Below, piece by piece: positions 2,500-60,055 of a stretch of DNA of 64,000 nt; position 1 is the stretch's first letter, and every line of letters begins with the position of its first letter. Under the pieces are notes generated by a model. The model did not search any database, was not told the origin of the DNA, and saw only the letters and a list, made by a program, of their open reading frames with translations. Both the position numbers and the translations under genes were made by a program. This stretch comes from an uncultured Bacilli bacterium (GTDB taxonomy: Bacteria; Bacillota_I; Bacilli_A; RF39; UBA660). The stretch spans positions 975,632-1,039,631 of the forward strand of contig OZ007038.1 of NCBI GenBank assembly GCA_963931685.1, given 5' to 3'.

Positions 2500-3342
2500 T
2501 TAGTTATTTTGATTTGTTTTTTTATTTTTATACACGTTTTTAAATCTATTATATTCATCAGCATTTATAGCTATACCCATAACAAATATATAAGTCAGTA
2601 TATACACCCAAATCATCATAACAATTATTCCAGATATACTTCCATAAAATAGGCTATAATTTGCCAGATTAGAGACATAATATGAATATACTGAAGTTGT
2701 TACTATCCAACATACGGTTGTGAATAGTGCACCTTTATTCATAAATTTACTAGAAATTTTTTCATCAGGTGAAATTGTATATATTATTTTTAGTATCCAG
2801 AATATTAAGACAAAAGCTACGGGCCATTTTAATAAGACAAAAATATAATAGACATTATTGCTTATTGATTGCATAATTTCTAAACTTAAAATCTTTTCTA
2901 AAATGATATTTCCATAAGCTAGAACTACAAAGATAAATATAAAAAGGAACATTAATAGAATTATCATAAAAAAGGCTTTAACTCTATCTTTTATATAGTC
3001 ATCGTTTTTTATATTATATAGTTCATTAGAAGTTATAATTATTGAATATGTACCATTTGAAACTAATATAAAACCAACTATCATAAAAAATAATACATTG
3101 GTTGTAATATGGCTATTTTCTATGAATGGTAAGACTATCTGCATAACATTTTCTGGGACTATTTCTCCAATTGTATTTATTAATGGTTCAAAGAAGTATA
3201 CCATTTTTGAACCAATATAACCAAATAATGTTAAGAGAGGAAAGATGGCTAAAATTAAGAAAAATGCTAACTGACCAGGCAATATTTTCATCTCTGGCCT
3301 TTTTATCAAATTTAATATTCTTTTTAAATATGATTTTATCAT
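2500..3342 (-). CDS. YihY/virulence factor BrkB family membrane protein
   Basis: LPGQLAFFLILAIFPLL start, multiple TM helices, YSLFYGSISGIIVMMIWVY motif. Confidence 0.85.
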   Translation of the reverse strand: MIKSYLKRILNLIKRPEMKILPGQLAFFLILAIFPLLTLFGYIGSKMVYFFEPLINTIGEIVPENVMQIVLPFIENSHITTNVLFFMIVGFILVSNGTYSIIITSNELYNIKNDDYIKDRVKAFFMIILLMFLFIFIFVVLAYGNIILEKILSLEIMQSISNNVYYIFVLLKWPVAFVLIFWILKIIYTISPDEKISSKFMNKGALFTTVCWIVTTSVYSYYVSNLANYSLFYGSISGIIVMMIWVYILTYIFVMGIAINADEYNRFKNVYKNKKTNQNN

Positions 3343-3362
3343 ACAGCCTCTTTCCTTTCAAT

Positions 3363-5393
3363 TTAATTTTTTACTTCTTCTTTATTATTTCTCATGTCTA
3401 AAGTAGCTTCATTAATAGCATCATCAATAGTTTTTATTTCATCATTAATCATACTATAACCAATAGCAGCTCCAAATCCATGAGATAATTCTTTAAATTC
3501 TTTATTTAATTTTCTAATATAAGTTACTACAGATTTTTCATCATGACCTATAATAAATATCAAAAATTCATTTCCGTTAGTTCTAAGTATTTCACTATCA
3601 CTTAGTTGGTGATTAATTAAAATACTAGCTGCTTCAACTATTACTTTATCACCTTCAGCGTGACCAAAGTTATCATTAATATAAGCAATATTATTTAAGT
3701 CAATGATAATTACTGATTGTGGATATGCTTCACTACTATCCCATGCGGTCATGTTATCATTTAAATAATTACGATTTTTAAGTGATGTTAGAGTATCAAC
3801 GTAACGTAATTTATCTGTTTTTGAGAGTTTACTATTAATATTTTTTTTCTTACCAAAAATTATTTTAGTGATAATTCCGGCAATAGCAAGTAAAACAATT
3901 ACTATACAACTTAATATTAATTGTAAATTCTTATTATTATTATTTGATAAAAGTAAATTTTTATAACTATCGTTCATCATCTCTTTGACATTTACAAATG
4001 ATAAATAGAAATTGAAGAAATCATTTAGGTTTTCATTTTTATTTTGTGAAATAAATCCATAATTATTATCAATATCTAAGGTATTAAGTTTCTTATAGTT
4101 TTTTAGTTCTAGTCTAACATAATAATCATAAGTGTATTCATCTATAGCCGCAATGTCATCAGCTTTAATTTTGTTTATTAAATCTTTAATATTTTGATAT
4201 TCTTTAGTTTTAACACCATTTGATTTTAAATATCTTGATATTTTACTATCCTTTATGGTTAATATTGTTTTATCTTGTAATGATGTGACGTTGTTAACTG
4301 TTAGGTCTGTATTTTTATCTGTTATAATAGCTATTTTACTATCATATACAGGAAGTGTTTTAAATGTTTTTATATTTATTTTGCTATTATTGAAATTATT
4401 TAATAATAAATCTAATTTATTTGTTTCAAAATCTTTAAGCATATTTTCAACTGATGAATATTGCTTATAATCTATTTCAATACCTGCTACTTTAGCAAAA
4501 TCACTAATTATTTCATGATTAAATCCTTTTAAACTACCATTTATAGCCATATCATATGGAGGATTTGCGACAAATCCATATGTATATCTTCTACTTCTAA
4601 AATCAGTTTGATTTTTTTCACTAATTTCTTTATAAGTAAAATAGGTGTTGGCAAGATGTTTATTAAATGAATCTTTTAAATCTTTTTTTTGCCATTTATT
4701 AAAGTATTTGGTGATAATTTTATTGAGTTTATCGTTATCACCTAATTTTATTGTATAATTTGTTTTATATTCAGTTATATTGTAGACAATATGCATGTCA
4801 TCTGTTTTTAAAATATTTTCTAAATAATCTAATTTGGGTAAAACTATAGCGTTTACTTCATTATTTGCTAAAGCAGTTAATAATTCATCGTTTGTATTAT
4901 ATCCTTGATAGGTTAGATTTAAAGAACCTTTTAGATAGTTTTCTACATCTTTTAAGCTATCATTTAAAACTCCAACTTTTAAATCTTTTATTTCATCAAT
5001 ACTAGTATAATATTTTTCTTCTTTAGAAATTAAGGCGTAATTATCTTGATATAAAACTAAATCTTTGGAAGTTGATTTATCTTTTTTTAATAATGCATAT
5101 TCAGTTTGAGGATTGTTATTTTCTTCATATGATAATTTATTAAATTCAAGATTAGTATCACTTTCTAGGTCAGTTATGAAATCAAATAATAATCCACTTC
5201 CATTATCATTTATAATTGGAATATTGTTTAATGCTGAAAAGTCAATTACTTTATTTTTGTTATCTTCAATCCATTTTTTTTCGATGACTGTTAATGTTGT
5301 TTTTTGGTCTTCTTTAGTAAAAAAACGGACTACGCCGATAGAACCTAAAATTAAAATAACAACTATGGCAATTATTCCGATTTTTTTATTCAC
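3363..5393 (-). CDS. Membrane-anchored solute-binding-domain protein with a C-terminal degenerate GGDEF domain
   Basis: N-terminal TM, two PBP-like regions (YGFVANPPYD), second TM, then DTLTSLKNR...IDLNNIAYINDNFGHAEGD...RTNGNEF. Confidence 0.85.
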   Translation of the reverse strand: MNKKIGIIAIVVILILGSIGVVRFFTKEDQKTTLTVIEKKWIEDNKNKVIDFSALNNIPIINDNGSGLLFDFITDLESDTNLEFNKLSYEENNNPQTEYALLKKDKSTSKDLVLYQDNYALISKEEKYYTSIDEIKDLKVGVLNDSLKDVENYLKGSLNLTYQGYNTNDELLTALANNEVNAIVLPKLDYLENILKTDDMHIVYNITEYKTNYTIKLGDNDKLNKIITKYFNKWQKKDLKDSFNKHLANTYFTYKEISEKNQTDFRSRRYTYGFVANPPYDMAINGSLKGFNHEIISDFAKVAGIEIDYKQYSSVENMLKDFETNKLDLLLNNFNNSKINIKTFKTLPVYDSKIAIITDKNTDLTVNNVTSLQDKTILTIKDSKISRYLKSNGVKTKEYQNIKDLINKIKADDIAAIDEYTYDYYVRLELKNYKKLNTLDIDNNYGFISQNKNENLNDFFNFYLSFVNVKEMMNDSYKNLLLSNNNNKNLQLILSCIVIVLLAIAGIITKIIFGKKKNINSKLSKTDKLRYVDTLTSLKNRNYLNDNMTAWDSSEAYPQSVIIIDLNNIAYINDNFGHAEGDKVIVEAASILINHQLSDSEILRTNGNEFLIFIIGHDEKSVVTYIRKLNKEFKELSHGFGAAIGYSMINDEIKTIDDAINEATLDMRNNKEEVKN

Positions 5394-5898
5394 TGCTTTC
5401 TACCTCACTTCCGTAATCAAAGCTGTTTTCTGTTTTATGTTTGTATCCAGCTATTGGGTAATTTTCATTTTCTTCTTCAGTATCTATTAAAATTTGGATA
5501 TCATAATATTCTTTATTTTTATCAGATATTTTATCTAAAATAGTATCCCCTAATTTTTTTGCATCATCTTTACTCATATCAGGAGCAACAGTAATAATAA
5601 AGTTTAATATACGTCCCTCATTATGATATTCAACATCATTAACCATCTTGTTTTCTTTTAATGTACTTTCAATATCATCGATTACCCCAGAGGAAATTTT
5701 ATGGTCTTCAATACCTTCTAGACGGTCACCATATTTATTATTACTAAAAACAGGTACAATAAACAACCATATAATTATTACAAAGAAGATAATTAAAAAT
5801 GCAGCAGCTCCAATTATACATTGTTTTTTATGATTTTTTATAAATTCCTTCATTATATCACCTTCAAACATTATACTATATTTTATATGAATTTTCAA
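5386..5898 (-). CDS. Hypothetical membrane-anchored protein
   Basis: One N-terminal TM helix; overlaps both neighbours, consistent with translational coupling. Confidence 0.7.
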   Translation of the reverse strand: MKIHIKYSIMFEGDIMKEFIKNHKKQCIIGAAAFLIIFFVIIIWLFIVPVFSNNKYGDRLEGIEDHKISSGVIDDIESTLKENKMVNDVEYHNEGRILNFIITVAPDMSKDDAKKLGDTILDKISDKNKEYYDIQILIDTEEENENYPIAGYKHKTENSFDYGSEVESSE

Positions 5899-6938
5899 AC
5901 CGCGTTAATTATATATGGATTATTTTCAGATCCAGTTCCGCCAATTATTTTAGAGTCTTTATTAATAGTTAAAACTGGTCTGACATTTAACGATGCATTA
6001 CTATTTTCTGTATCTATTATTCCATTTTCAATTGTGTAAATATTAGTTCCATTATTATTTATAGTGTACTCTGGGCCATTTTCTATTGAAAAGTCTGATA
6101 AGTAATTTCCTTTCGTACATTCTACTTCAGTACCATTTATACATTTTAAATTATTTGAGGCATTTAAATAATCTCTAGTTGTTAATAGTCCAACATTAAC
6201 ATTTTCTTTTTCTATACATTTTTCGTTTTCGTATGATGTACAAAATGATGTGTTTTCAAATTCTGAAACTGTATCTAAGCTTGTGAAAAATGTATTATTT
6301 AGATATGTTTTTACAGTAGAATTATCAAAGTTAATATTTCCATCAAGACTCCATGAGATTTGGGCTGTTTCATCATTACTAATAATTTTTATACTTCCAT
6401 CACTATTATTACTAATTATTCGCCATAATTTTCCATTTAGTTTTAAATAATTATCGGGATTTTCTCCTTTATAAATACCATTTTGCGCTAATAAAACATC
6501 TTTTTTTTTAGAGTTATTAATTATAGTAGTGGCTAAATCATTCATAGCTATATCTTCATCTTCACTTTTATCAACATATGTAAATATAAACTGTTTTTTA
6601 GAGCTATCATATTTTATTTCAACATTACCTTTTAAGTTTTCACTGCTATGACGTGGATCTTTAATTTCATCATTTGAAATATATCCTTCATTTACTAATG
6701 TGTCAACTGGAAGACGGTATACTGAACCATCATCTGGCAATATATTTGCATGTTTTAAACTCCATGTTTTAGCAGCTTTTTCAATGACAGCTACCTGATC
6801 GTTATATGCACTTTCTCTTGAATTTCTGATAACTGATGCGATTGCTGGATAAACAACTAATGCTATTAAGCCTAATATAGCTACAACAGCGATTAACTCA
6901 ACTAATGTAAATCCCTTTATTTTTTTCATTTTTATCAC
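5895..6938 (-). CDS. Type IV prepilin-like protein with a C-terminal DUF6273-like domain
   Basis: KGFTLVELIAVVAILGLIALVVYP class III signal. C-terminus GENPDNYLKLNGKLWRII...VRPVLTI...GTGSENNPY matches the repeated domains of 28317-32099. Confidence 0.8.
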   Translation of the reverse strand: MIKMKKIKGFTLVELIAVVAILGLIALVVYPAIASVIRNSRESAYNDQVAVIEKAAKTWSLKHANILPDDGSVYRLPVDTLVNEGYISNDEIKDPRHSSENLKGNVEIKYDSSKKQFIFTYVDKSEDEDIAMNDLATTIINNSKKKDVLLAQNGIYKGENPDNYLKLNGKLWRIISNNSDGSIKIISNDETAQISWSLDGNINFDNSTVKTYLNNTFFTSLDTVSEFENTSFCTSYENEKCIEKENVNVGLLTTRDYLNASNNLKCINGTEVECTKGNYLSDFSIENGPEYTINNNGTNIYTIENGIIDTENSNASLNVRPVLTINKDSKIIGGTGSENNPYIINAV

Positions 6939-9114: not shown

Positions 9115-10215
9115 CTAATTTTTCTTGAAATGATCAAAATCTGATTCTCTTAAGGTAAATTTATATGCATTATTATTATTTACAATTACAAATACACTTT
9201 CAACATTTTCTTTAACTTCGAAGTATAAAATTGGTGAATGTAATTCTTCTTCTACATCTACTAAGTCGTTAAAGTTTTTAATATTAATAACATCGTATTG
9301 TTCTAAATCTGGCATGTTATGTGTTTCAGCAATAATGTCGGCATATTCTTTTAAGATTTTGTTAAGTGCTAGAACATATTCTGATTTTCTAGTTACTGCA
9401 AGTAAACTCTTAACTAATACTTTGAATGCTATTAATGAACCAACTAATAATACAACACCAAATGCTAGTAATGGAACATTCATTTCAGTTTCTGTTTCTG
9501 CTGATTTATAGATCGTATCTCCTCCATTATTTACATAGTTTGGTTTAATATTTATTGTTTGTTGTAATAACGGTATTTCTAATGACATAGTATTAGATGC
9601 TTGTAGGTCATTTTCATCACTATCTTTTAGTCCTGCTTTAATATTAATCTTCATACTTAAATCAACTCTAGCATCAATCGATAATCCGAATTGATTACGG
9701 AAATCGGTCATAATATCATTATATTCATTATAATTTAATTGAACATTTTTATTAATTGTAAATGTTTTACCAGTGCCACTTTGATTAGCTTGATTGTCTA
9801 TAGGATAAGTTTTTGTCCAAACTTCAACATCTTCACCTTCTGTGTTTTGATATAACCCTTTTGCAGTTGCCACTATTTCATAGTTATAACTGTAATCTAA
9901 TTCTTCAGTACTTTGGAAATTATAAACTGCATCAACATCAATATGATCAATTAATGATGAGATATATTGTTTATTCATTCCAATATAAGGTGATGTAAAG
10001 AATTGGTTATTCTTTAAATAAACCTTATAATTTAAATTTGAAGTATAATTATATGAATATAATTTTTCTCTAGATGCTTGCTCAGGATTAACAGCTTTAA
10101 CAATTGACACAATGGATACCACCATTAAGGCAATTACAGCGATTAAAAAGAATACTCTAATCCACTGTTTTAAAATTATTTTGTTTTCATTTTTTTGTTT
10201 CTTTTTATTTTCCAT
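9115..10215 (-). CDS. DUF5305-like membrane protein (two TM helices around an extracellular domain)
   Basis: NLNYKVYLKNNQFF...WTKTYPI pattern; directly downstream of the SipW-type peptidase. Start placed at MENKKK (10215) behind an RBS; the ORF track starts at 10248. Confidence 0.65.
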   Translation of the reverse strand: MENKKKQKNENKIILKQWIRVFFLIAVIALMVVSIVSIVKAVNPEQASREKLYSYNYTSNLNYKVYLKNNQFFTSPYIGMNKQYISSLIDHIDVDAVYNFQSTEELDYSYNYEIVATAKGLYQNTEGEDVEVWTKTYPIDNQANQSGTGKTFTINKNVQLNYNEYNDIMTDFRNQFGLSIDARVDLSMKINIKAGLKDSDENDLQASNTMSLEIPLLQQTINIKPNYVNNGGDTIYKSAETETEMNVPLLAFGVVLLVGSLIAFKVLVKSLLAVTRKSEYVLALNKILKEYADIIAETHNMPDLEQYDVINIKNFNDLVDVEEELHSPILYFEVKENVESVFVIVNNNNAYKFTLRESDFDHFKKN

Positions 10216-10231
10216 TTTTCTTCTCCCCTTC

Positions 10232-11380
10232 TTATGATATTGCACCACTTAACCATACTGATGGATATCCAATCAATGGTATAACAAATGATACTTTTCC
10301 TTTTACATCTTCTAAAGCAACCTTACCTTCATCAATGGTGTTGTTGTGATCACCTTTTGTAATAAATTGTTTGTTTCCATAACTGTCATTAGTAATATCT
10401 ACAATTCTATGGACAACATATTTTGTTCCACTTACAAATTGAATTATATCACCTTTTTTTAGTTCATTCTTTTCTCTAGTGTTAAGTTTATTAACAACTA
10501 CTGCATCTCCTCTATTAAATGTTGGTGACATACTACCTGATAAAACAGCAATTGGTTGGTATTTAAATAATCCCATTACGAAGCCAGCAAGCAGTGCTAT
10601 AAAAGCAAAAACTGGAACATAAACTACCGGATTATAATTTCTTCTTTCTCTTTTTGATAATCTTTCTGATCTATTTACATGAACATAATTCATATAAATA
10701 TAAATTGCAAGTGGTAATGTAACGCCAACTATGGCAGTTGCAAACCAATCTAGGTTAGGAATGATTGGTACTATGAATGGTGGAATTGTAACAAATAATC
10801 TATATATTATAGAGAATTTTGCACCACCTATATATACTAGATAAGTAGCAATTGCACTTTCTAATATAGCTGGAATTAAAGTTGTTGAAGAATAAATAAA
10901 TATTTCTTTCAAATCTGTAAAATGACTTTCAATATTAGAATAATTTAAGTTAATTAACATAAATAAGATTGTCATTAAAATATAATTCCAATGTTTTTTC
11001 TTTTCATTTTTTACTAATGCTTCTCTTATAAATTCTTGGAAGAAAATTAGTCCACCAAAACTCCATAAGTTTTTCAATATGCTAAATAAATCTTTTGAAT
11101 ATGGTGTTTTTTCAAATCCAAAAATTAATCCTAGTAAGAAGTAACCAATTATATAAATAATTAGTGCTATAATTAAGCTTTGTGTTTTGTCTTTTTCACC
11201 TTTAACTCTTAATCCAGAGTCTTTACTCAAATAAACTGCTACACCACATATGATTATCCACATAAGTGGGTGGAATATTTCATTATAATAATCGAGACTA
11301 AGTGGAATGATGACAAAAACATTTAAAACTAAATATATAATTAACAAACTATATATTATTAGGTTTTTTTTCATATTCAT
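10232..11380 (-). CDS. sipW: Signal peptidase I of the SipW/S26B type with a large N-terminal polytopic membrane domain
   Basis: AVLSGSMSPTFNRGD (catalytic Ser), YVVHRIV (His, SipW/ER type), FITKGDHN; about 270 aa hydrophobic N-terminal extension. Confidence 0.85.
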   Translation of the reverse strand: MNMKKNLIIYSLLIIYLVLNVFVIIPLSLDYYNEIFHPLMWIIICGVAVYLSKDSGLRVKGEKDKTQSLIIALIIYIIGYFLLGLIFGFEKTPYSKDLFSILKNLWSFGGLIFFQEFIREALVKNEKKKHWNYILMTILFMLINLNYSNIESHFTDLKEIFIYSSTTLIPAILESAIATYLVYIGGAKFSIIYRLFVTIPPFIVPIIPNLDWFATAIVGVTLPLAIYIYMNYVHVNRSERLSKRERRNYNPVVYVPVFAFIALLAGFVMGLFKYQPIAVLSGSMSPTFNRGDAVVVNKLNTREKNELKKGDIIQFVSGTKYVVHRIVDITNDSYGNKQFITKGDHNNTIDEGKVALEDVKGKVSFVIPLIGYPSVWLSGAIS

Positions 11381-11553: not shown

Positions 11554-12138
11554 TTACTGTGCTTGTGAAGCATTCATATTAACAGTGATACTTGCAGAAG
11601 TGGCTTTACCAACAGATGTTGCAGAACTAATGAATTCAGCTTTTACTTTCATAGTAACTGTATCATTTTGATTCATTGTTGTAGTAGCTGCTGGTGTTAC
11701 AGTAAATTGAATATTACCTTTTCTAGCAACTAATGGTTGAACATCTTCGTCACCAGTCATTTCAACAGTTGGAGTACCTACAGTAGCAGGAATTGTACCA
11801 TTATTTTTAATTGTTAGTGTAAATGTAACAGTATCTCCTGGTTGATATAATGTTGCACTAATATTTGCATTATGATCATCGTTATCATAACCTATTGTTC
11901 CGGTTGGAGTTGTTCCTCCAGCAAAACCAGCTACTGCATCAACTACACCTGGAGTAGCTTCTGTTTTTGTTGAATCATATTTTACATCCCAAGTTGAAGT
12001 GATTTCAGCACTTCCGTTAATTGTTAATTGTTGTGCAAATGCGGCATAACCAACTGCCATTACAAATACTACTGCAAGTAATGCTCCAATCAATATGTTT
12101 TTGTGTTTACTTTCCATTTTTTCCATCCTTTCTCTCAA
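11554..12138 (-). CDS. SipW-class signal peptide protein (TasA/CalY-like subunit), paralog 1
   Basis: Basic N-terminus, hydrophobic helix, VGYAAF, then LTINGSAEITSTWDV and LYQPGDTVTFTLTIKNNGTIPA; adjacent to sipW. Confidence 0.75.
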   Translation of the reverse strand: MRERMEKMESKHKNILIGALLAVVFVMAVGYAAFAQQLTINGSAEITSTWDVKYDSTKTEATPGVVDAVAGFAGGTTPTGTIGYDNDDHNANISATLYQPGDTVTFTLTIKNNGTIPATVGTPTVEMTGDEDVQPLVARKGNIQFTVTPAATTTMNQNDTVTMKVKAEFISSATSVGKATSASITVNMNASQAQ

Positions 12139-12162
12139 GTAGCTTTCTCCTACTTTATTTAT

Positions 12163-12191
12163 AATATATCATAATTGGTTTTTTCATTCAA
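12163..12191 (-). promoter_or_regulatory. SigA-like promoter of paralog 1
   Basis: TTGAAT-17 nt-TATATT with TGn. Confidence 0.55.
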
Positions 12192-12194
12192 GAC

Positions 12195-12229
12195 AAAACA
12201 AAAAAAACTATAAAAAGTTTTTTTGTTTT
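12195..12229 (-). terminator. Terminator after paralog 2
   Basis: Near-perfect inverted repeat aaaacaaaaaaaact/agtttttttgtttt. Confidence 0.55.
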
Positions 12230-12234
12230 ACACT

Positions 12235-12798
12235 TTACGCTGTTGCTTGAGAAGCGTTCATGTTAATTGTAACGTCTGCTGTAGTAGTATCACCAACAGA
12301 TGTTGCAGAACTAATGAATTCAGCTTTTACTGTCATAGTAACTGTTTCAGTTTGGTTAATTGTTTTTGTGTCTGCAGCAGTTACAGTAAATTGAATATTA
12401 CCTTTTCTAGCAATTAATGGTTCACCAGCTTGGTCACCATCCATAGCAACAGTAGGCGCTCCTACAGTAGCAGGAATTGTACCATTATTTACAATTGTTA
12501 ATGTAAATAAAACGGTATCTCCTGGTTGATATAATGTTGCGCTTATGTTTGCGTTATGATTTCCATTATCATAACCTATTGTTCCGGTTGGAGTTTGACC
12601 ACCAACCATACCTGCTGTAGCATCAACTATACCTGCTCCGGTTTTTTTAGAAGGGTCGAATGTTACATCCCATGTAGATGTAATTTCAGCACTTCCGTTG
12701 ATTGTTAATTGTTGAGCAAATGCGGCATAACCAACTGCCATTACAAATACTACTGCTAATAATGCACCAATTAACGCATTTTTGTGTTTACTTTCCAT
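12235..12798 (-). CDS. SipW-class signal peptide protein, paralog 2
   Basis: MESKHKNALIGALLAVVFVMAVGYAAFAQQLTINGSAEITSTWDV; highly similar to paralog 1. Confidence 0.75.
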   Translation of the reverse strand: MESKHKNALIGALLAVVFVMAVGYAAFAQQLTINGSAEITSTWDVTFDPSKKTGAGIVDATAGMVGGQTPTGTIGYDNGNHNANISATLYQPGDTVLFTLTIVNNGTIPATVGAPTVAMDGDQAGEPLIARKGNIQFTVTAADTKTINQTETVTMTVKAEFISSATSVGDTTTADVTINMNASQATA

Positions 12799-12849
12799 TT
12801 TTTTCCTTCCTTCCTATAATATTCTAAGTAGCTTCCCTACTCTATAATG

Positions 12850-12878
12850 ATATTATCATATTTTGATTTACAATTCAA
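12850..12878 (-). promoter_or_regulatory. SigA-like promoter of paralog 2
   Basis: TTGAAT-17 nt-TAATAT with TGn. Confidence 0.55.
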
Positions 12879-12937
12879 GAAATTTTTCTCGTTTTTTGTA
12901 TACATTTGTTAAATGTGTTTAAATTACATAATAAAAA

Positions 12938-12957
12938 CTTAAGCAAAAATGCTTAAG
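12938..12957 (-). terminator. Terminator after paralog 3
   Basis: Inverted repeat cttaagca/tgcttaag overlapping the stop codon. Confidence 0.5.
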
Positions 12958-13516
12958 CTTGAACATAGTTCATTGTTACTGTTAATTGAGCTGAAAGATT
13001 TTGAAGGTTACCTTGTCCTTCTGCCCTGTTAACAAATTCAGCGACAATAGTTATTTGAGCTGTACCGTTATTAGCATTTAATATTCCTGTACCTGGACTA
13101 GTAACAGTATATTTAATATCACCATCTTTTGTTGTAGCAGTTAAACTTCTATTATCAACAACCATTTCTGGAGTTTCACTTGATAAAGTAATTGTACTTA
13201 ATTTAGCATTTAATGTTCCAGTATTTTCGATTGGAATCACATAAGTAACGGTATCTCCTGGACTCATTAATTCTGAAGTAAATGTAGCTGTTAGTCCGCC
13301 TTCATCAACAGTAACATCTCCAGTAGGGGCTGTTCCCATTGTAGAATTTGGTGTTGCAGTTGCTCCTTCTTGTTTCATATGAACATCCCATCTTGAGGTG
13401 ATTTCAGCACTTCCGTTAATTGTTAATTGTTGTGCAAATGCGGCATAACCAACTGCCATTACAAATACTACTGCAAGTAATGCTCCAATTAAGGCATTTT
13501 TGTGTTTTGCTTCCAT
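12953..13516 (-). CDS. SipW-class signal peptide protein, paralog 3
   Basis: Same N-terminal 40 aa as paralogs 1 and 2; divergent core with LMSPGDTVTYVIPIENTGTLNA. Confidence 0.75.
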   Translation of the reverse strand: MEAKHKNALIGALLAVVFVMAVGYAAFAQQLTINGSAEITSRWDVHMKQEGATATPNSTMGTAPTGDVTVDEGGLTATFTSELMSPGDTVTYVIPIENTGTLNAKLSTITLSSETPEMVVDNRSLTATTKDGDIKYTVTSPGTGILNANNGTAQITIVAEFVNRAEGQGNLQNLSAQLTVTMNYVQA

Positions 13517-13564
13517 TTTTCTTCCCTCCTATAATATTCTAAGTAGCTTCTCTACTCTATTATG

Positions 13565-13593
13565 ATATTATCACATTTGTTGCCTTATTTCAA
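13565..13593 (-). promoter_or_regulatory. SigA-like promoter of paralog 3
   Basis: TTGAAA-17 nt-TAATAT with TGn. Confidence 0.55.
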
Positions 13594-13766
13594 GAATAAA
13601 ATTTTTTTAAGTTTCGGTATTTTACTAAACTCTCACATAAAAACTAACTTTCAATCAAACAACTTATAATAAATTTGATTTGTAAAGGAAATTTATAAAT
13701 TTTTTTCATGCTAACGCAGGGCATTAATCATGTCCTTTTTTAATATTATTCTAAAAATAATTATCT

Positions 13767-15050
13767 CTATAATTTTAACTGTAATTGTTTAAATTTCTCT
13801 CTGCTTTCTATCTTTTGCCATTTTCTTATTCCTTCATGGGCATATGATAGTATATTTCTTATCCCCCTAGATATTTGTCCATACCATACTATAGCTGTCT
13901 TTTTAATTGATTTACTTGCCTCTATTATTTTTATAATCAATAATTTAAAATCTATCTTGTCTGAGAGTATTCCTATATGTAACATTACACAACTTAATAT
14001 TAAATTTAAATTATTGATCCCTCTTAAATTTCTTACTCTAAAATTTTCAAAATCATAATTCTGTTTCTTAGCTTTAAAATATTCTTCTATTTTCCATCTC
14101 ATCATATAGGTCCTAGCTATTTTTAAAACATCATCTTTTGTTTTGATTGGTAAATCTGATAGTAAATACATCGGATCACTTTCTTCATCTTTTCTATATA
14201 TTATAACTAGGCTTAAGTCTTTTTCTTTCATCTTTGGAAATTGTACTGTCGTATATGATATATAACAATCTGTATTTTCGCCTTTATACATTAATTTAGT
14301 ATGAATCTTTCCTTTTCTTGTGGCTGCCACTTCTTTTACTAATCTCTTTTTCCCTTTAAATAACATATGTCTGTCACCATCTAATCTAACTATAAACGAT
14401 ATTTTATTTTTTATTGTTTCTTCAAACAAGTTATAGGAATCATAACCTCTATCTTTTACTACTATTATCTTTATCTTTTCGTTTTCTTTCCTTAATTTAC
14501 TTATAACTTCTTTTTCAGATTTCTTGGTTTCATCTGGACAGCTGATAAACCCGGAAGTTTCTGTAGAGTATATTTTTGAATATAAACTGACTGGTTGTTT
14601 TTCATTTTTCGTAAGCCCAACTACTTCACACACATGATAGCCATTAACGTATCTATCTTCCTTACTACTGGCATCTTTCACTGTGCATAAATCTTCTAGT
14701 TTTCTACTATATTCTTTATTTACATCAGAATCATCTTCTACTAATATTACTTCATCGTCTGGCAATTGTTTTATTGCTTCATTTAAATAGTTCTCTTTTA
14801 TTTTTTCTATACTTTCATCTGACAAATAATTACATCTATCACATAATCTTTCAATAGTATTTTTAAGTTTATTTTCCTCATTCAAAGCTCTAGCTATATC
14901 ACTAAATAAAATACTTCCACTTTTTTCTATGCCATATAACATATCAGCTATGAACTTTTTGTCAGGCTTACATAAGCCTTCTGAAATTTTTTTCGAAAAA
15001 TTTAAAATATCTCTTTTCACCTCATAGGTATTTGTAGTAAAATTATTCAT
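13767..15050 (-). mobile_element. DDE transposase (IS4-superfamily-like), intact ORF; terminal inverted repeats not confidently found
   Basis: EDDSDVNKEYSRKLE, VVKDRGYD and YMMRWKIEEYFKAKKQ (Y-x2-R-x3-E-x6-K) motifs; inserted between paralogs 3 and 4. Confidence 0.85.
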
Positions 15051-15244
15051 GGAAAGACCTCCTTATTTTTTGTTTATTAGTAAAAGTTTTTTCAATTTAA
15101 TTATACTAAATTTGGAATGGTTTTTCCTTATTTTTAAAGTAAAAAGATGAATTCTTTTCCACAGGATTCATCTTTTTTTATTAGCCATTTAAATTTCACC
15201 GGAACTTAAATAAAATTTTATAATTTATGGAAATGATGTAAAGA

Positions 15245-15280
15245 AAGAAACATTAGAATTTATGCTTTCTAATGTTTCTT
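15245..15280 (-). terminator. Terminator after paralog 4
   Basis: 14-bp perfect inverted repeat aagaaacattagaa/ttctaatgtttctt. Confidence 0.65.
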
Positions 15281-15779
15281 AAGCTTGAACAAATGTTAAA
15301 ATCATAATTAAATTACCTGTCTTGTTAGCAGGGGTTGTAGTATAACTTTCGTTAAATTTTACAGTAACTGTAAATGTTTTGGAACCGTCTGCATTAATAA
15401 CATCATTCTGTGAAATACCTTCATAACTATATTGGATAGCATCATTATTATCAGCATCAAATGTAATTGTATCTAATTTGGCATTTAATGTTCCAGCATT
15501 TTTTACTGTTATATTATAAGTTACTCCACTACCCGGACTCACTAATTCAGCTTGAAATGTAGCACTTAATTTATCATCTCCAACGGTGGCACTAACATTT
15601 TTTCCATCTAATATTTCATGATTTACAGCAATATCTTCAATGTGAACATCCCATTTTGAAGTTATTTCGGCAGTTCCGTTGATTGTTAATGCTTGGGCGA
15701 ATGCGGCATAACCTATAGCCATAACTAGGACTACTGCTACTAAAACCATAATTAGTGAAGATTTATGCATATCTTCCAT
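15279..15779 (-). CDS. SipW-class signal peptide protein, paralog 4
   Basis: VLVMAIGYAAFAQALTINGTAEITSKWDV; LVSPGSGVTYNITVKNAGTLNAKL. Confidence 0.75.
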   Translation of the reverse strand: MEDMHKSSLIMVLVAVVLVMAIGYAAFAQALTINGTAEITSKWDVHIEDIAVNHEILDGKNVSATVGDDKLSATFQAELVSPGSGVTYNITVKNAGTLNAKLDTITFDADNNDAIQYSYEGISQNDVINADGSKTFTVTVKFNESYTTTPANKTGNLIMILTFVQA

Positions 15780-28316: not shown

Positions 28317-31300
28317 TTAATTTGTAATAACATAAGGGTTACCAGAACTTCCATCACCTGTTAAGATGGTATCAGATGTTAGATATAGAGTTGGGGAAAC
28401 GCTGAGATAAAGAGACACGTATTCGTTGCTAAGCCTGCCGGCACTACTAGTATCGCCGGACACATAGAAGACCAAATAACTGGTACTGGCGTCAGGCGAA
28501 ATAGTCCATAAATAATTTTCCTGTGGAACAATATTATACATCCAATTTGTGGTTAAACATGTTGTATTATTTGTATTATTTAAACTATAATTTCCACATT
28601 GTTCTGTATTGGTATTTGCTCTTAAATATTCTGATGCAGTTATCATACCAATACTAGTAGCTTGAGACTGTTTTCCATTTTCTGAAATAATTTGGCCGGC
28701 TAAATCACTATTACCATATGTTACTCTACCTATACTCCAAGTATGAGGTACTATTTTATCTGCATTTGTAGTTATTGTTGGTAAATAAGTATCATTCAAA
28801 TATGTTTTTATATCTGATAGTTTCCATGCATTACTATTAGTTGCATCCCATATCTGATTTCCTATACTTTCGTTTCGAATTATTTTTATTGTATTATCTG
28901 CACCTATAGAAATTATTCTCCACATTTCATTATTAAAAGTTATATAGTTATTTGGATTGGCTCCTTTATATGTATATTTTCCTTCTTCATAAGTATCTTC
29001 ATATAATCCATCACCTTCAGAAACAACTAATTCTTTTAAATCTTCAGAAATTGTTCCTATTTTTACGCTATAACTGCTACTAAATGTATCTGTTCCTTTA
29101 GTAACTGTGGCGACTACTGAACCATTTGTTGTAAATTCGACAGCTACTGTTTGATTTGTTACATTTACTATTTTTTCATTATCCTTTTGATATGTGCATG
29201 TTAATGTACTTCCACATCCTTCTGGATAGTTAATATTTACCGTCTTTGGATTTGTTCCACTTTCAGAGAATGTTGGAATATATTTTGAATAATCTTCTAA
29301 CTGATATGGATTATTACTTGTTCCTTCTCCTCCAATTATTTTTATATTTGATTTTAAATATAATGAAGGTCTATAGTTATCAATTACATTAACAGAATTA
29401 CTATTAATCTGTCCAGATGCTTGAATGTTTCTTGAACTTGTTCCATTGCTTGCTGGAGAAAAAGTCCAATACTGTTTTCCTGTAAATAACCACGAGGTAC
29501 TTTTACATGTACTATAGTTCGTGTTTATTAAACTAAAATTTCCACATTTACTTGTATTAGTGTTTGATCTGATGTAATCACTAATATTTATTAAACCTAT
29601 TTTACCATTCCAAATAGTTCCATTTTCATCTGATATTTGTGTTCCTAAATTGGTGTTGTTCCATACTACTTCACCTATGCCAAAATTATGAGATGCAATT
29701 TGTGATTTTGCCGCACTTGTTAATGATGCATAATAATCTCCATTTAAATATGTATTAAGAGTTGCTGGTCTTGCCCAATTATTACTATTAGATGTATCCC
29801 AGGCTTTATTTGTTAAAATTTCGTTTCTAGTTATTTTTATTGAGCCATCTTTTTCTTTAGAAATTATTCTCCATAGTTCATCATTAAATTCTACATAATT
29901 ATTTGGGTTTGCTCCTTTATATACATATCTACCATCTTCATATGTATCTTCATATAAACCATCTCCAGTTGTTGTTATGTCATCTGTTATATCAATTCCT
30001 ACTTTTACATTATAACTACTACTTACTTCATTTGTTCCATCAGATGCTTTGGCTAGAAGTGTTCCATTATTAGTAAATTCTATGTCTACTGTTTTACTAG
30101 TTACTTCCATTTCTTCTCCATTATCTTTTTGGTATGTGCATGTTAATGTACTTCCACATCCTTCCGGATATGTGATTGTAACTGTTTTTGGTAATGTACC
30201 ACTTTCAGAGAATGTTGGTTTTTCTAGTTCTGGTAATGATACCCCATTTAAAATTTTGAATGGATCATCTGAAGTTCCACTTCCACTCAAAGTAGTATCA
30301 GATTTCAAAAAGACAACTGGGCGAGGAGCGACAGTACTATAGAGCGCACGAGCGTGGCGCACGCGCGCGTATGAACCACTAGCACTACCATACCAGGCGT
30401 AATGCGAACGACCACCAGACTCGTAAGAAGAAGCATTTATTGTCCAGTAATATAATGTACTTGCTCCTTTATCTAATAAGTAATTGCTATTACATTCATT
30501 AGTACCGTTATATGAAGTTGTGGCTGATGTACATAGTGGGTTTGTACTTGCTCTTAAGATATCTGATACGTTAGCTAGTCCTACATTTCCTGTCCATTGG
30601 TACATTTTCTCTCCTGCTATATTTTTTTCTATACTATCTGCTTCGGCTTCGCTTTCATTTAAATATTCTACTGCCCCTATATTAAATGGATGGCTTGTCA
30701 TTTGTCCTTTAGCTGTTTCATTTATATTATTTACATAGTAATCATCATTTAAATATATTTTGATACTTGAATCTTCGGTTACTGTTCCACTTTGTGATCC
30801 GCTAGGTGAAGAGAATGTTCCATCAACTGCTGCATATACTCCGCAGCTAGATGTATCAGCACAATAAGTAGAAGATGCTGTACGATTTTGATTGTCAAAG
30901 GCTCGGTCTGCTAAAACATCGTTTCTAATTATTTTATATGTTCCATCTGTTTCTTTAGCTATGATTCTCCATAGTTCATCATTAAACATTATATAGTTAT
31001 TTGGATTTTGGCCTCTATAAACATATCTACCTTCTTCATAAGCATCCTCATATAAGCCATCACCAGTAGTTGTAACATCATCTGTTATGTCTATTCCACT
31101 ACCAACTTGATCTTCAGCAGTTAATTCAGTTCCATTTGTTACCCTAACTTTGATATTATAATTTGTATCTGATTTTAAATTAGTAAATGTATAGACATTG
31201 TTATTTCCATTATCTATATAATTTCCATCATTTATTGAAAATTCATATTTACTTATTCCACTTTCATCATCGTGAGCGGCAACGACTACAGTAATTGAAT

Positions 31301-32099
31301 TTGAGGTTGTAGATGTTGATATATTATCTATAATTGGTGGAGTCGTATCTTTAGCTTTAAATATAGCATATAAAGTTATATCTGTATCTCCTACTGTTAA
31401 TTCTGTTAATACTTCTTTTGAATCTTTATCAGTATTCCATCCAGCAAAGTCATAGTTATCTTTTGTTCCAGTTTTAGTTAAGTCTACTGGTGTTCCAGTT
31501 ACTAAATATTCATTATTACTTGAACAGTCATTTCCTCCATTAGTGATGCAGTCATATGTTATTAAATGGGTATTTTCTGGAGGTGATGTTTCATCATTGT
31601 TTTGTCCATAATCAAAGTTTATTTCGACTTCACTTGAAGTTTCTTCCCCTTCATAGTTTGGATTATATTCTATTTTGACGTGTATTATTTTGATACTTTT
31701 TGATTTTAATATTTCTCCTTTGGTGTAACCTGTGAATGTTATATTAACAGCTTCACTATTTGAGTTTTCTAAGTTGGTTAATATATTATTTAATTTGGCA
31801 TCTATAGTTCCTTTATTTTCTATGGTGACGTCATATTCCATGGCATCACCTTTTTCATACAAATCTGCTTCCATTGAGGCTGTTAGAGCATCCCATTTAG
31901 GGGCGACTGTATTTTCGGCTGAACCTGTTGGGGTACCAGGGGTTACATTTGTTATTTCTATATCCCAATTACTTGTTACTTTAGAGGTTCCTGATATTTT
32001 AAGTTCTGTATTAAAGGCAGCATACCCTATTCCCATACAAAAAAGAATTCCTATTAAACTAAATATTACTATATTTCTTTTTTTCTTACTCCTATACAT
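28317..32099 (-). CDS. 1260-aa surface adhesin: GYAAF signal and TasA-like domain, InlB-B/Flg_new repeat, FN3-like domain, three DUF6273-like domains
   Basis: MGIGYAAFNTELKISGTSKVTSNWDI; YDFAGWNTD...ITLYAIF; DTTPP...YNIKVRVTN; three GxNPNNYxxFNxExWRII...xPxxxL...GxxxxPY units; PTFSESGTxPKT...CTYQKDN linker twice. Confidence 0.8.
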   Translation of the reverse strand: MYRSKKKRNIVIFSLIGILFCMGIGYAAFNTELKISGTSKVTSNWDIEITNVTPGTPTGSAENTVAPKWDALTASMEADLYEKGDAMEYDVTIENKGTIDAKLNNILTNLENSNSEAVNITFTGYTKGEILKSKSIKIIHVKIEYNPNYEGEETSSEVEINFDYGQNNDETSPPENTHLITYDCITNGGNDCSSNNEYLVTGTPVDLTKTGTKDNYDFAGWNTDKDSKEVLTELTVGDTDITLYAIFKAKDTTPPIIDNISTSTTSNSITVVVAAHDDESGISKYEFSINDGNYIDNGNNNVYTFTNLKSDTNYNIKVRVTNGTELTAEDQVGSGIDITDDVTTTGDGLYEDAYEEGRYVYRGQNPNNYIMFNDELWRIIAKETDGTYKIIRNDVLADRAFDNQNRTASSTYCADTSSCGVYAAVDGTFSSPSGSQSGTVTEDSSIKIYLNDDYYVNNINETAKGQMTSHPFNIGAVEYLNESEAEADSIEKNIAGEKMYQWTGNVGLANVSDILRASTNPLCTSATTSYNGTNECNSNYLLDKGASTLYYWTINASSYESGGRSHYAWYGSASGSYARVRHARALYSTVAPRPVVFLKSDTTLSGSGTSDDPFKILNGVSLPELEKPTFSESGTLPKTVTITYPEGCGSTLTCTYQKDNGEEMEVTSKTVDIEFTNNGTLLAKASDGTNEVSSSYNVKVGIDITDDITTTGDGLYEDTYEDGRYVYKGANPNNYVEFNDELWRIISKEKDGSIKITRNEILTNKAWDTSNSNNWARPATLNTYLNGDYYASLTSAAKSQIASHNFGIGEVVWNNTNLGTQISDENGTIWNGKIGLINISDYIRSNTNTSKCGNFSLINTNYSTCKSTSWLFTGKQYWTFSPASNGTSSRNIQASGQINSNSVNVIDNYRPSLYLKSNIKIIGGEGTSNNPYQLEDYSKYIPTFSESGTNPKTVNINYPEGCGSTLTCTYQKDNEKIVNVTNQTVAVEFTTNGSVVATVTKGTDTFSSSYSVKIGTISEDLKELVVSEGDGLYEDTYEEGKYTYKGANPNNYITFNNEMWRIISIGADNTIKIIRNESIGNQIWDATNSNAWKLSDIKTYLNDTYLPTITTNADKIVPHTWSIGRVTYGNSDLAGQIISENGKQSQATSIGMITASEYLRANTNTEQCGNYSLNNTNNTTCLTTNWMYNIVPQENYLWTISPDASTSYLVFYVSGDTSSAGRLSNEYVSLYLSVSPTLYLTSDTILTGDGSSGNPYVITN
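28385..28510 (-). other. Putative DGR variable region in the third domain
   Basis: 28401-28500 hand count: 50% GC, 19% coding-strand A; mostly NNC/NNT codons between WTISP and PTLYL. Confidence 0.6.
30310..30435 (-). other. Putative DGR variable region in the first domain
   Basis: 30321-30420 hand count: 60% GC, 11% coding-strand A; NNY codons with interspersed TCG/TGG/GCG/GTG between YWTIN and RPVVFL. Confidence 0.65.
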
Positions 32100-59464: not shown

Positions 59465-60055
59465 TTAGAATAATTTTTCATATATCTTACTGGCATTGTC
59501 AAAATTAGCTTTATTCCAAATATTTTCAATATATTTATTTCTTTCGTTTCTATATTTTAAATAGTAAGCGTGTTCCCAAAGATCTACTGTAAATAAAGGT
59601 GTTAGATCATATGAAAGTGGTGTTTCTTGGTTTGGAAGGTTTATGATTGTTAGATTTCCATTATTATCGGAAACTAAGAAAGTATATCCGGAACCAACTA
59701 AGTTTTTAGATTTGTTTATAAATATTTTTTTAAAGTTTTCAAAACTTCCATAATCATTATTTATTTTATTTAGTAGTTTTCCTTTAGGTGGTGTGGGAGT
59801 TTCATTTAAACTTTGCCAGTATAAGTTATGGTTTAATATGCCTCCTGCATTATATAAAATTTGACCTCTATCTTTTAATGGAAATTCATTTATTCTTTTT
59901 GGAATTTGTTCTAAAGGAATTGTTGATATTGTGAGTTTGTTTAAGTTTTCGGCATATTTTTTATGATGTTTATTATAATGAATATTTACAGTTTCTTCAT
60001 CTATTACTGGCTCTAGAGAATTATATGGATATGGGAGCATAATTACTTTATACAT
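59465..60055 (-). CDS. sodA: Fe/Mn superoxide dismutase, Mn-type signature
   Basis: LPYPYNSLEP, HYNKHH, NAGGILNHNLYW, NQE, DLWEHAYY. Confidence 0.9.
   Translation of the reverse strand: MYKVIMLPYPYNSLEPVIDEETVNIHYNKHHKKYAENLNKLTISTIPLEQIPKRINEFPLKDRGQILYNAGGILNHNLYWQSLNETPTPPKGKLLNKINNDYGSFENFKKIFINKSKNLVGSGYTFLVSDNNGNLTIINLPNQETPLSYDLTPLFTVDLWEHAYYLKYRNERNKYIENIWNKANFDNASKIYEKLF

Follow-up and report, generated by a model that had tools for sequence, protein, structure and literature searches.

Can a single protein carry two variable regions that were written by diversity-generating retroelements from two different templates, and is such a protein still being rewritten today? These questions are raised by one gene in a 64-kb stretch of DNA (the window, bases 975632-1039631 within one 1.54-Mb contig with a GC content of 27.7%) from an uncultured gut Bacilli bacterium, whose nearest public relatives are 'Firmicutes bacterium CAG:822' and Candidatus Coprosoma. 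The gene is a single uninterrupted open reading frame (ORF) at 28317-32099 on the minus strand, and it encodes a composite protein of 1260 aa, a putative adhesin, with three C-lectin-like domains (D1, D2 and D3). In a diversity-generating retroelement (DGR), an error-prone reverse transcriptase (RT) copies a template repeat (TR) and randomises its adenines, and the resulting cDNA replaces a variable region (VR) in the target gene. To our knowledge, prokaryotes have no other system for the targeted hypermutation of proteins, and the structures on which DGR domains are mounted tell what DGRs are used for. A sequence-only reading had proposed that the ends of D1 and D3 (here VR1 and VR3) are two such regions displayed on a SipW/TasA-type fibre, and that this would be a new system. 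Having followed the two segments through the genome and its relatives, we favour another answer, with a probability of roughly 0.7: the protein would be a composite adhesin in which two relic DGR regions, from two template lineages, are combined with a fibre-subunit module. It would thus be a variant of the known DGR scheme rather than a new system.

Composition and repeat families of the two segments

The ends of D1 and D3 had been described as GC-rich and depleted in A, and the corresponding part of D2 as ordinary, and base counts bear this out. The 118-nt core of VR1 has 11.9% A and 58.5% GC, and the 120-nt core of VR3 has 20.0% A and 47.5% GC, whereas the equivalent stretch of D2 has 37% A and 30.5% GC; the A content of the whole gene is 40.8%. 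In 100-nt windows, the GC content peaks at 0.56 (30300-30399) and 0.51 (28400-28499) and ranges from 0.23 to 0.37 in the rest of the gene. The AT skew of the plus strand is positive at both peaks, so it is the coding strand that is depleted in A. When the gene was scanned in 90-nt windows, sustained runs with A below 0.25 were confined to the places of VR1 and VR3; the same scan picked up one isolated window from 30884 (A 0.24) and three N-terminal windows that pass by GC alone. A foreign island was ruled out as the source of the GC-rich segments, which are ~120 nt long, in frame and set between family-typical flanks. D2 was also considered as a naive VR, and the genome search found no TR- or VR-like relative of it. 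A composition scan of the whole genome recovered the 13 known VR-like segments, with thresholds too unspecific for finding further VRs.

Both segments belong to repeat families that could be traced by BLAST searches of the genome. The VR1 family has seven other copies with 74-83% identity, each at the end of a single-domain gene with a GYAAF-type signal, and a sister template of this family, TR-A, lies 158 kb from VR1. The VR3 family has three other coding copies and one non-coding copy rich in AAC and AAT codons, TR-B, which is found at genome 1469139-1469262, 465 kb from VR3. With the TR-A and TR-B families in hand, the proposal of two independent VRs from different template lineages, with their cassettes at remote places, holds. 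The TR-A family also offers an internal positive control. Once the insertion that interrupts TR-A (see below) has been removed by script, TR-A and its cis VR (e850) differ at 22 positions, and 22 out of 22 are template adenines. This is a textbook DGR signature.

VR1 and VR3 compare with the templates in a less clean manner. Against TR-B, VR3 is changed at 17 of 36 adenines and at 10 of 83 other bases (Fisher P = 7e-5). The first 78 nt of VR3 contain a single internal non-adenine change, and the 3' third is far more diverged. Against TR-A, VR1 is changed at 24 of 36 adenines and 23 of 87 other bases (P = 7e-5), and it is one codon (3 nt) shorter. In an active TR/VR pair the differences are more or less confined to template adenines; in VR1 and VR3 the adenine bias is significant, but it is not exclusive. 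What the two segments do have are the marks of relic DGR-derived VRs, namely a family with a bona fide TR/VR pair, the adenine bias, NNY codons and a hypervariable core.

Other members of the families show departures of the same kind. In family 1, the perfect match between TR-A and its cis VR is the only one: among the remote VRs, f652 has 6 and d185 has 9 non-adenine differences from TR-A, which suggests that rewriting of the remote copies is rare or has ceased. In family 3, TR-B lacks three non-adenine states (GCG, TCT and TAC) that the cis VR (h1468) and a remote VR (k1391) have in common, so TR-B has drifted since it last wrote both of them.

The hypervariable core can be seen in family 1. 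VR1 belongs to a 118-nt class of four distinct sequences: VR1 itself, two others in the genome (one of them present as two identical copies), and that of a protein from another metagenome, P0002. The variable columns of this class fall on codon positions 1, 2 and 3 in the numbers 22, 21 and 7, and the invariant columns read as an AAY-rich template. In the eight family-1 paralogues the VR, with a mean identity of 66.8%, is less conserved than the sequences on either side, which average 83.5% over 300 upstream nt and 91.3% over 66 downstream nt. Conserved sequence around a hypervariable core is the pattern expected of a DGR target family. TRs and VRs have the 3' boundary motif in common, GCTCCCCGCCCAG in family 1 (with GCTCCTCGCCCAG in VR1) and GTTTCCCCAACTCT in family 3. 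These motifs are GC-rich and resemble the site for initiation of mutagenic homing, and immediately past them the TR and VR sequences part.

Could the two segments have nothing to do with DGRs, and be instead the ordinary hypervariable loops of paralogous adhesins, shaped by gene conversion and by selection for binding loops rich in Gly, Ser, Tyr and Arg? The many non-adenine differences from the extant templates would fit such an origin, as would the large size of the paralogous family (~28 domain copies in the genome) and its clear domain shuffling. It would not account for a non-coding, AAY-rich TR-B that adjoins an RT/Avd cassette and differs from VR3 with an adenine bias, nor for the 22 out of 22 adenine differences of the sister VR, the concentration of variable columns at codon positions 1 and 2, or the lack of any composition anomaly in D2 and in the domains of the orthologue described below. 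We regard a non-DGR origin as very improbable.

The genome-wide search for RT and Avd genes and for template repeats recovered RTs, bAvd, TR-A and TR-B; a template of the VR1 class was not found. An adenine-tolerant, ungapped scan of both strands of the genome with the whole VR1 and with 50-nt pieces returned only the sister VRs and the 3' half of TR-A. A 36-mer of the inferred VR1-class template had no match with up to three mismatches in 65 genomes of the genus, and comparison by eye of VR1 with an intact TR from a related cassette (L022) showed no better fit. Judged from these alignments, both segments are DGR-derived and stem from two template lineages, and neither is a fresh copy of a present template. 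The earlier idea that they are written from two remote templates thus survives in its two lineages; neither segment cleanly copies a template now in the genome, and current writing is rather unlikely.

State of the cassettes and the question of continued rewriting

As had been noted earlier, the window contains no RT and no template repeat. The three RVT_1 matches in the genome (846682-847404, 1470378-1470674 and 1474276-1474551) all lie outside it. They belong to two cassettes of the same gene order: in DGR-B, at 1.469 Mb, TR-B is located between a 425-aa target with the GYAAF signal and the genes of a MutS_I-like protein, bAvd and the RT (RT-B); DGR-A, with TR-A and RT-A, is at 0.848 Mb. The RTs were also considered as group II intron RTs, which is ruled out by the adjoining bAvd and TR and by the IGxxxSQ motif. 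DGR RTs are present in 41 of 61 genomes of the genus, many of them with stop codons.

Both cassettes are disrupted. In TR-A, a 1551-bp insertion sequence (IS), which has inverted ends and is flanked by an 8-bp duplication, GGGGTTTG, separates the template into two parts. Of the five full-length copies of this IS in the genome, those in TR-A and at 3228-4778 are 100% identical, which marks the insertion as recent. The interruption cannot be an intron, given the target duplication, the inverted ends, the DDE transposase and the five genomic copies. In DGR-B it is the RT gene that is split, between the motifs GKGLPIG and SQILAIF, by a 3.4-kb element with three tyrosine recombinases of the recombinase-in-trio type. 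The break point and the gap are identical in two other species of the genus (G063 and G064), which means that this insertion is old or was carried along with the cassette.

Further loci were noticed along the way. The left end of the same IS (CTGAATGACGGACAG) also follows immediately on the stop codons in two further VR genes of family 1, at genome 972549-971010, just outside the window, and from 382950 onward. A third, decayed DGR locus at 0.226 Mb (L006:3480-3720, genome ~225980-226220) has a 45-nt stub of the TR 5' end; the order there is a 464-aa family-1 target, the TR stub, a ~170-nt remnant with IS ends and clpC, and the RT and Avd genes are absent.

The relatives of the gene give a view of its history. 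In a collection of 5.8 billion proteins, none has more than 73% identity to the putative adhesin. The nearest are a positional orthologue, P0001 (61%), and the paralogue P0002, which comes from another strain and another locus. The orthologue has the same response-regulator neighbour, a flank that is 94% identical and three domains; an A-depleted segment was looked for in it and none was found. P0002 has a single VR1-class region. Such relationships indicate that domains are shuffled modularly among paralogous genes. The P0002 gene is base-for-base identical in two independent samples, and the two contigs that carry it (L018 and L017) differ at 12 positions, all within 233 nt in the neighbouring rpsF region (L018:5037-5269), which look like a small recombination patch. 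In this case, the single one that could be checked, the VR1-class region is stable. Judging by in-frame stop codons, the adhesin family also includes many pseudogenes; paralogues of the N-terminal module or the lectin-like domain with such stops are found at genome 445482, 58697, 1136399, 1392317, 417719 and 1398456.

Our preference for relics has three main reasons: VR1 and VR3 differ from the extant templates at many non-adenine sites, TR-A is split by a very recent IS copy, and RT-B is split by the recombinase-trio element. According to the history we propose, VR3 would descend from the TR-B lineage (the cassette at 1.469 Mb), and VR1 from a sister of TR-A (the cassette at 0.848 Mb), its own template having gone from the genome. 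The two regions would have been diversified in the past, possibly before their domains were joined in one ORF, and the joining may have come about through recombination among paralogous target genes. Both would now be frozen and no longer rewritten; that they are inactive at present is probable.

A number of observations weigh against this account. On the side of the fibre module, the N-terminal module of the protein is itself below significance for the Pfam family Peptidase_M73, and a Foldseek search of the PDB with its model gave generic Ig-sandwich matches, with TasA not in the top 50. On the side of the cassettes, RT-A (369 aa), its bAvd and its MutS_I-like gene are all intact, and the identical IS copy means that cassette A stopped working only very recently. 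The ~40-nt spacers after TR-A and TR-B are nearly identical, so TR-B RNA might still be used by RT-A, and a mixed system of these two is conceivable. With TR-A split, RT-B split and TR-B intact, a complete set of RT, accessory genes and TR would need just this combination.

A rival proposal is that the diversification of VR1 and VR3 continues. VR3 and the other family-3 VRs would then be rewritten in trans by RT-A, bAvd and the MutS_I-like protein, using TR-B RNA, and the source for VR1 would be the surviving 3' part of TR-A or an unassembled template. Besides the intact genes and the similar spacers, the 62% identity between the two RTs is in its favour, together with the retention of the 3' boundary motifs (GCTCCTCGCCCAG in VR1 and GTTTCCCCAACTCT in VR3), the 91% conservation of the 66 nt downstream of the family-1 VRs, and an assembly completeness of only ~90%. 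However, the non-adenine mismatches of VR3 cluster in the 3' third, which is where the integration of cDNA starts, and a recent homing from TR-B is thereby excluded. VR1, for its part, is of another length class than TR-A and has the 23 non-adenine differences; the remote family-1 VRs are already imperfect where the cis VR is perfect; and the related VR1-class gene is identical across two samples. We therefore consider continued diversification of the two regions unlikely. A bolder picture can be drawn, in which this gut Bacilli lineage with its reduced genome displays DGR-diversified C-lectin domains as the tips or minor subunits of a donor-strand fibre of the TasA/AbpX superfamily, the present protein being two-headed and drawing on two templates, with at least VR3 still rewritten in trans by RT-A with TR-B RNA. 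We find it quite unlikely, although, if it were true, the organism would have a genome-wide, fibre-mounted and programmable adhesin repertoire that outlasts the partial loss of either cassette.

Carrier domains, fibre module and gene neighbourhood

The relic account places the two VRs in a protein that is best explained as a secreted or surface protein assembled from exchangeable modules (Table 1). The architecture first read from the sequence, a GYAAF signal, a TasA-like module, a stalk and three homologous domains, is found in the ORF, with a tentative membership in the TasA family suggested by matches of the paralogues of the module. D1, D2 and D3 are homologous by tblastn: D2 and D3 are ~42-43% identical, D1 is ~32-37% identical to each of them, and all three fit one alignment.

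Table 1. Coordinates of the composite gene, its parts, the putative fibre locus and the element in RT-B. Positions are those of the window unless marked otherwise; aa ranges refer to the composite protein.
Feature	Position	Strand	Basis
Composite surface protein: signal, fibre-subunit-like module, stalk, three C-lectin-like domains	28317..32099	-	ORF, Pfam, tblastn, alignment
SipW-class-like signal peptide, aa 1-28, ...GIGYAA/F	32016..32099	-	Motif
N-terminal beta-sandwich module, aa 29-170	31590..32015	-	Homology to four small proteins at 11554-15779, AlphaFold2 (AF2) model
Listeria-Bacteroides repeat (Flg_new) stalk domain, aa 180-250	31350..31562	-	Pfam, 38.3 bits vs cut-off 27
fn3-like stalk domain, aa 255-333	31101..31337	-	Weak Pfam fn3 match, E 0.003, below cut-off
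C-lectin-like domain 1 (D1), aa 335-620	30240..31097	-	73-81% identity to seven single-domain DGR family 1 paralogues
VR1, aa 556-594, 118 nt, template class 'C'	30317..30434	-	Repeat-family membership, composition
Linker 1, aa 621-699, ~79 aa, Cys-containing Ig-like repeat, paralogous to linker 2	30003..30239	-	Translation read directly
C-lectin-like domain 2 (D2), aa 700-935	29295..30002	-	Pfam DUF6273, 27.7 bits vs cut-off 23.5
Linker 2, aa 936-1013, Cys-containing, paralogous to linker 1	29061..29294	-	Translation
C-lectin-like domain 3 (D3), aa 1014-1260	28320..29060	-	78% identity to cis target of cassette DGR-B
VR3, aa 1200-1239, 120 nt, TR-B family	28383..28502	-	Repeat-family membership, composition
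Four small GYAAF-signal proteins, 166-194 aa, putative fibre subunits	11554..15779	-	Motif, homology
Multi-pass membrane domain fused to archaeal/SipW-type signal peptidase I	10232..11380	-	TIGR02228, 92.9 bits vs 51.85; Peptidase_S26; hydrophobic segments
DUF5305 protein	9115..10248	-	Pfam, 76.3 bits vs cut-off 29
Recombinase-trio element in RT-B	L005:6362-9803 = genome 1470861-1474302

A C-type lectin fold had been expected for the carrier domain, and this expectation agrees with the DUF6273 match and with the model of D3. The model was built with AF2 from 23 genomic paralogues and has a pLDDT (a measure of model confidence) of 89.9. In the BFVD database it was matched by Foldseek to predicted phage DUF6273 proteins at E 4e-10, with 19 matches at E <= 1e-3, and after these to DUF1566. 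The matches in the PDB are weak (E >= 0.12) and include the C-terminal domain of Legionella Lcl, the FGE-like domains of EgtB and OvoA, and animal C-type lectin domains; when the domain profile was compared with PDB sequences, nothing matched. The VR is located in the last strands of the model, at residues 195-235, and a VR in the C-terminal strands, together with the family match, is what is seen in DUF6273, C-lectin-like DGR targets. In gut phages, DGRs that target C-lectin domains of the DUF6273 family have been described (PMC10743442).

At the other end of the protein, the N-terminus reads MYRSKKKRNIVIFSLIGILFCMGIGYAAFNTELKISG. Signals of the GYAAF type head 25 ORFs of the genome in a motif scan, one of which, at 1087195, looks like a chance match. 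The N-terminal module shares end-to-end homology with the four small proteins of the window (tblastn E 1e-14 to 1e-18), and 5 of 11 paralogues of the module match Peptidase_M73, the TasA/camelysin family, with a best E of 1.7e-6. Its AF2 model has a pLDDT of 79, with low confidence at residues 32-35, just past the predicted cleavage site, which is the one hint that the module may assemble by donor-strand complementation; AbpX chains in the PDB match it at E 0.56-0.63. The peptidase and DUF5305 genes lie directly downstream of the four small paralogues, and the putative adhesin gene is 16 kb away. The array of small genes is broken by a transposase gene (DDE_Tnp_1, 427 aa, window 13767-15050, minus strand) that differs from the IS in TR-A.

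This gene set has counterparts in the literature. Small subunits, a signal peptidase I with many transmembrane segments and a DUF5305 gene make up the locus grammar of the AbpX and Tafi fibres, and DUF5305 is regarded as an accessory of the signal peptidase in fibre loci of the TasA superfamily (preprint 10.64898/2026.01.04.697558; PMC12337348). The AbpX preprint (10.64898/2026.01.04.697558) also predicts larger 'tip' or minor proteins that contain the subunit module. For the protein studied here, the predicted assignment to the SipW-type export class is well supported. Homology and gene neighbourhood suggest, in a more tentative way, that it may be incorporated in a fibre, sit at the tip and act as an adhesin. 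Of the SipW/TasA-type fibre proposed at the outset, then, the SipW-type peptidase, the DUF5305 gene and the four paralogues are indeed present in the window, and the role of tip adhesin stays a conjecture.

Another protein in the window, of 347 aa (5895-6938, minus strand), has a type IV prepilin-like leader, KGFTLVELIAVVAILG, and a DUF6273-like domain, whose terminal segment is Asn-rich and non-diversified. With the domain on both GYAAF and prepilin-like proteins, it appears that this adhesin domain is mounted on two types of filament subunit.

Comparison with known systems

The cassettes have much in common with the DGR of Bordetella phage BPP-1 (mtd VR, TR, avd and brt) and with bacterial DGRs whose targets are remote or multiple, such as those of the Treponema denticola TvpA family and Legionella LdtA. 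They share a target with a C-terminal VR, a TR, bAvd and an RT with the IGxxxSQ and YxDD motifs, as well as adenine-specific differences (22 out of 22 in the cis pair), a carrier domain of the C-lectin type and the presence of many paralogous targets in a single genome. There are, however, some clear differences from these systems. Here one ORF has two VRs of two template lineages, neither of which cleanly matches an extant template, and both cassettes have a MutS-domain-I-like accessory gene and are disrupted. For the multiplicity of targets, one paper cites up to eight similar DGR targets in Treponema denticola and Stenotrophomonas.

Several VRs in one target ORF have likewise been seen before. 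The accessible text of two surveys gives 31 such DGRs (PMC6642488) and 7 such genes (PMC11661182), most of the multi-VR DGRs having a single TR; two TR lineages in separate domains are not described in that text. In the present protein the two VRs belong to separate homologous domains, ~1.9 kb apart and far from either cassette.

The phage DUF6273 targets, the 'tentaclins' and Mtd-like receptor-binding proteins (PMC10743442), are of the same domain family, with the VR at the end of the lectin-like domain and with Ig-like or fn3 spacers. In contrast to these, the protein described here is cellular and chromosomal, with a SipW-class signal, a fibre-subunit module and three tandem lectin-like domains, and no phage tail. 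The fibre locus resembles those of B. subtilis TasA-SipW, AbpX and Tafi in its small subunits, TIGR02228 peptidase, DUF5305 and the GxxAAF end of the signal. Unlike those fibres, it is known from its genes alone, a distance of 16 kb separates it from the target gene, and the target's own module has no significant match to the TasA family.

Our literature search found no paper that combines 'diversity-generating retroelement' and 'TasA', no description of a DGR-diversified lectin domain on a TasA/AbpX-type module, and none of two template lineages in one protein. A lectin domain fused to such a module points to variable adhesins displayed on filaments in a wall-reduced gut lineage, and the protein shows that domain shuffling can bring VRs of different template lineages together in one ORF. 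The genome also presents a graded decay of DGRs, from a perfect cis VR through drifting remote VRs and orphan VRs to a TR with an IS, an RT with a recombinase element and a stub of a cassette. A word of caution for DGR surveys can be added, since programs that look for TR/VR pairs would overlook or wrongly score relic VRs that are far from any cassette and show mixed mismatches.

Some compositional observations were made elsewhere in the genome. Genes with the GYAAF signal at 59724-59883 and 341697-853 end in A-depleted, GC-rich sequences (ADHSYRVWYVYGVGSLSYSS and ADNSGLVWIFVGDGSLFGNN), apparently a third VR family. About 9 kb before the window, at genome 965599-966382, there is a stretch of 784 nt with 59% GC, compared with 27.7% for the genome.

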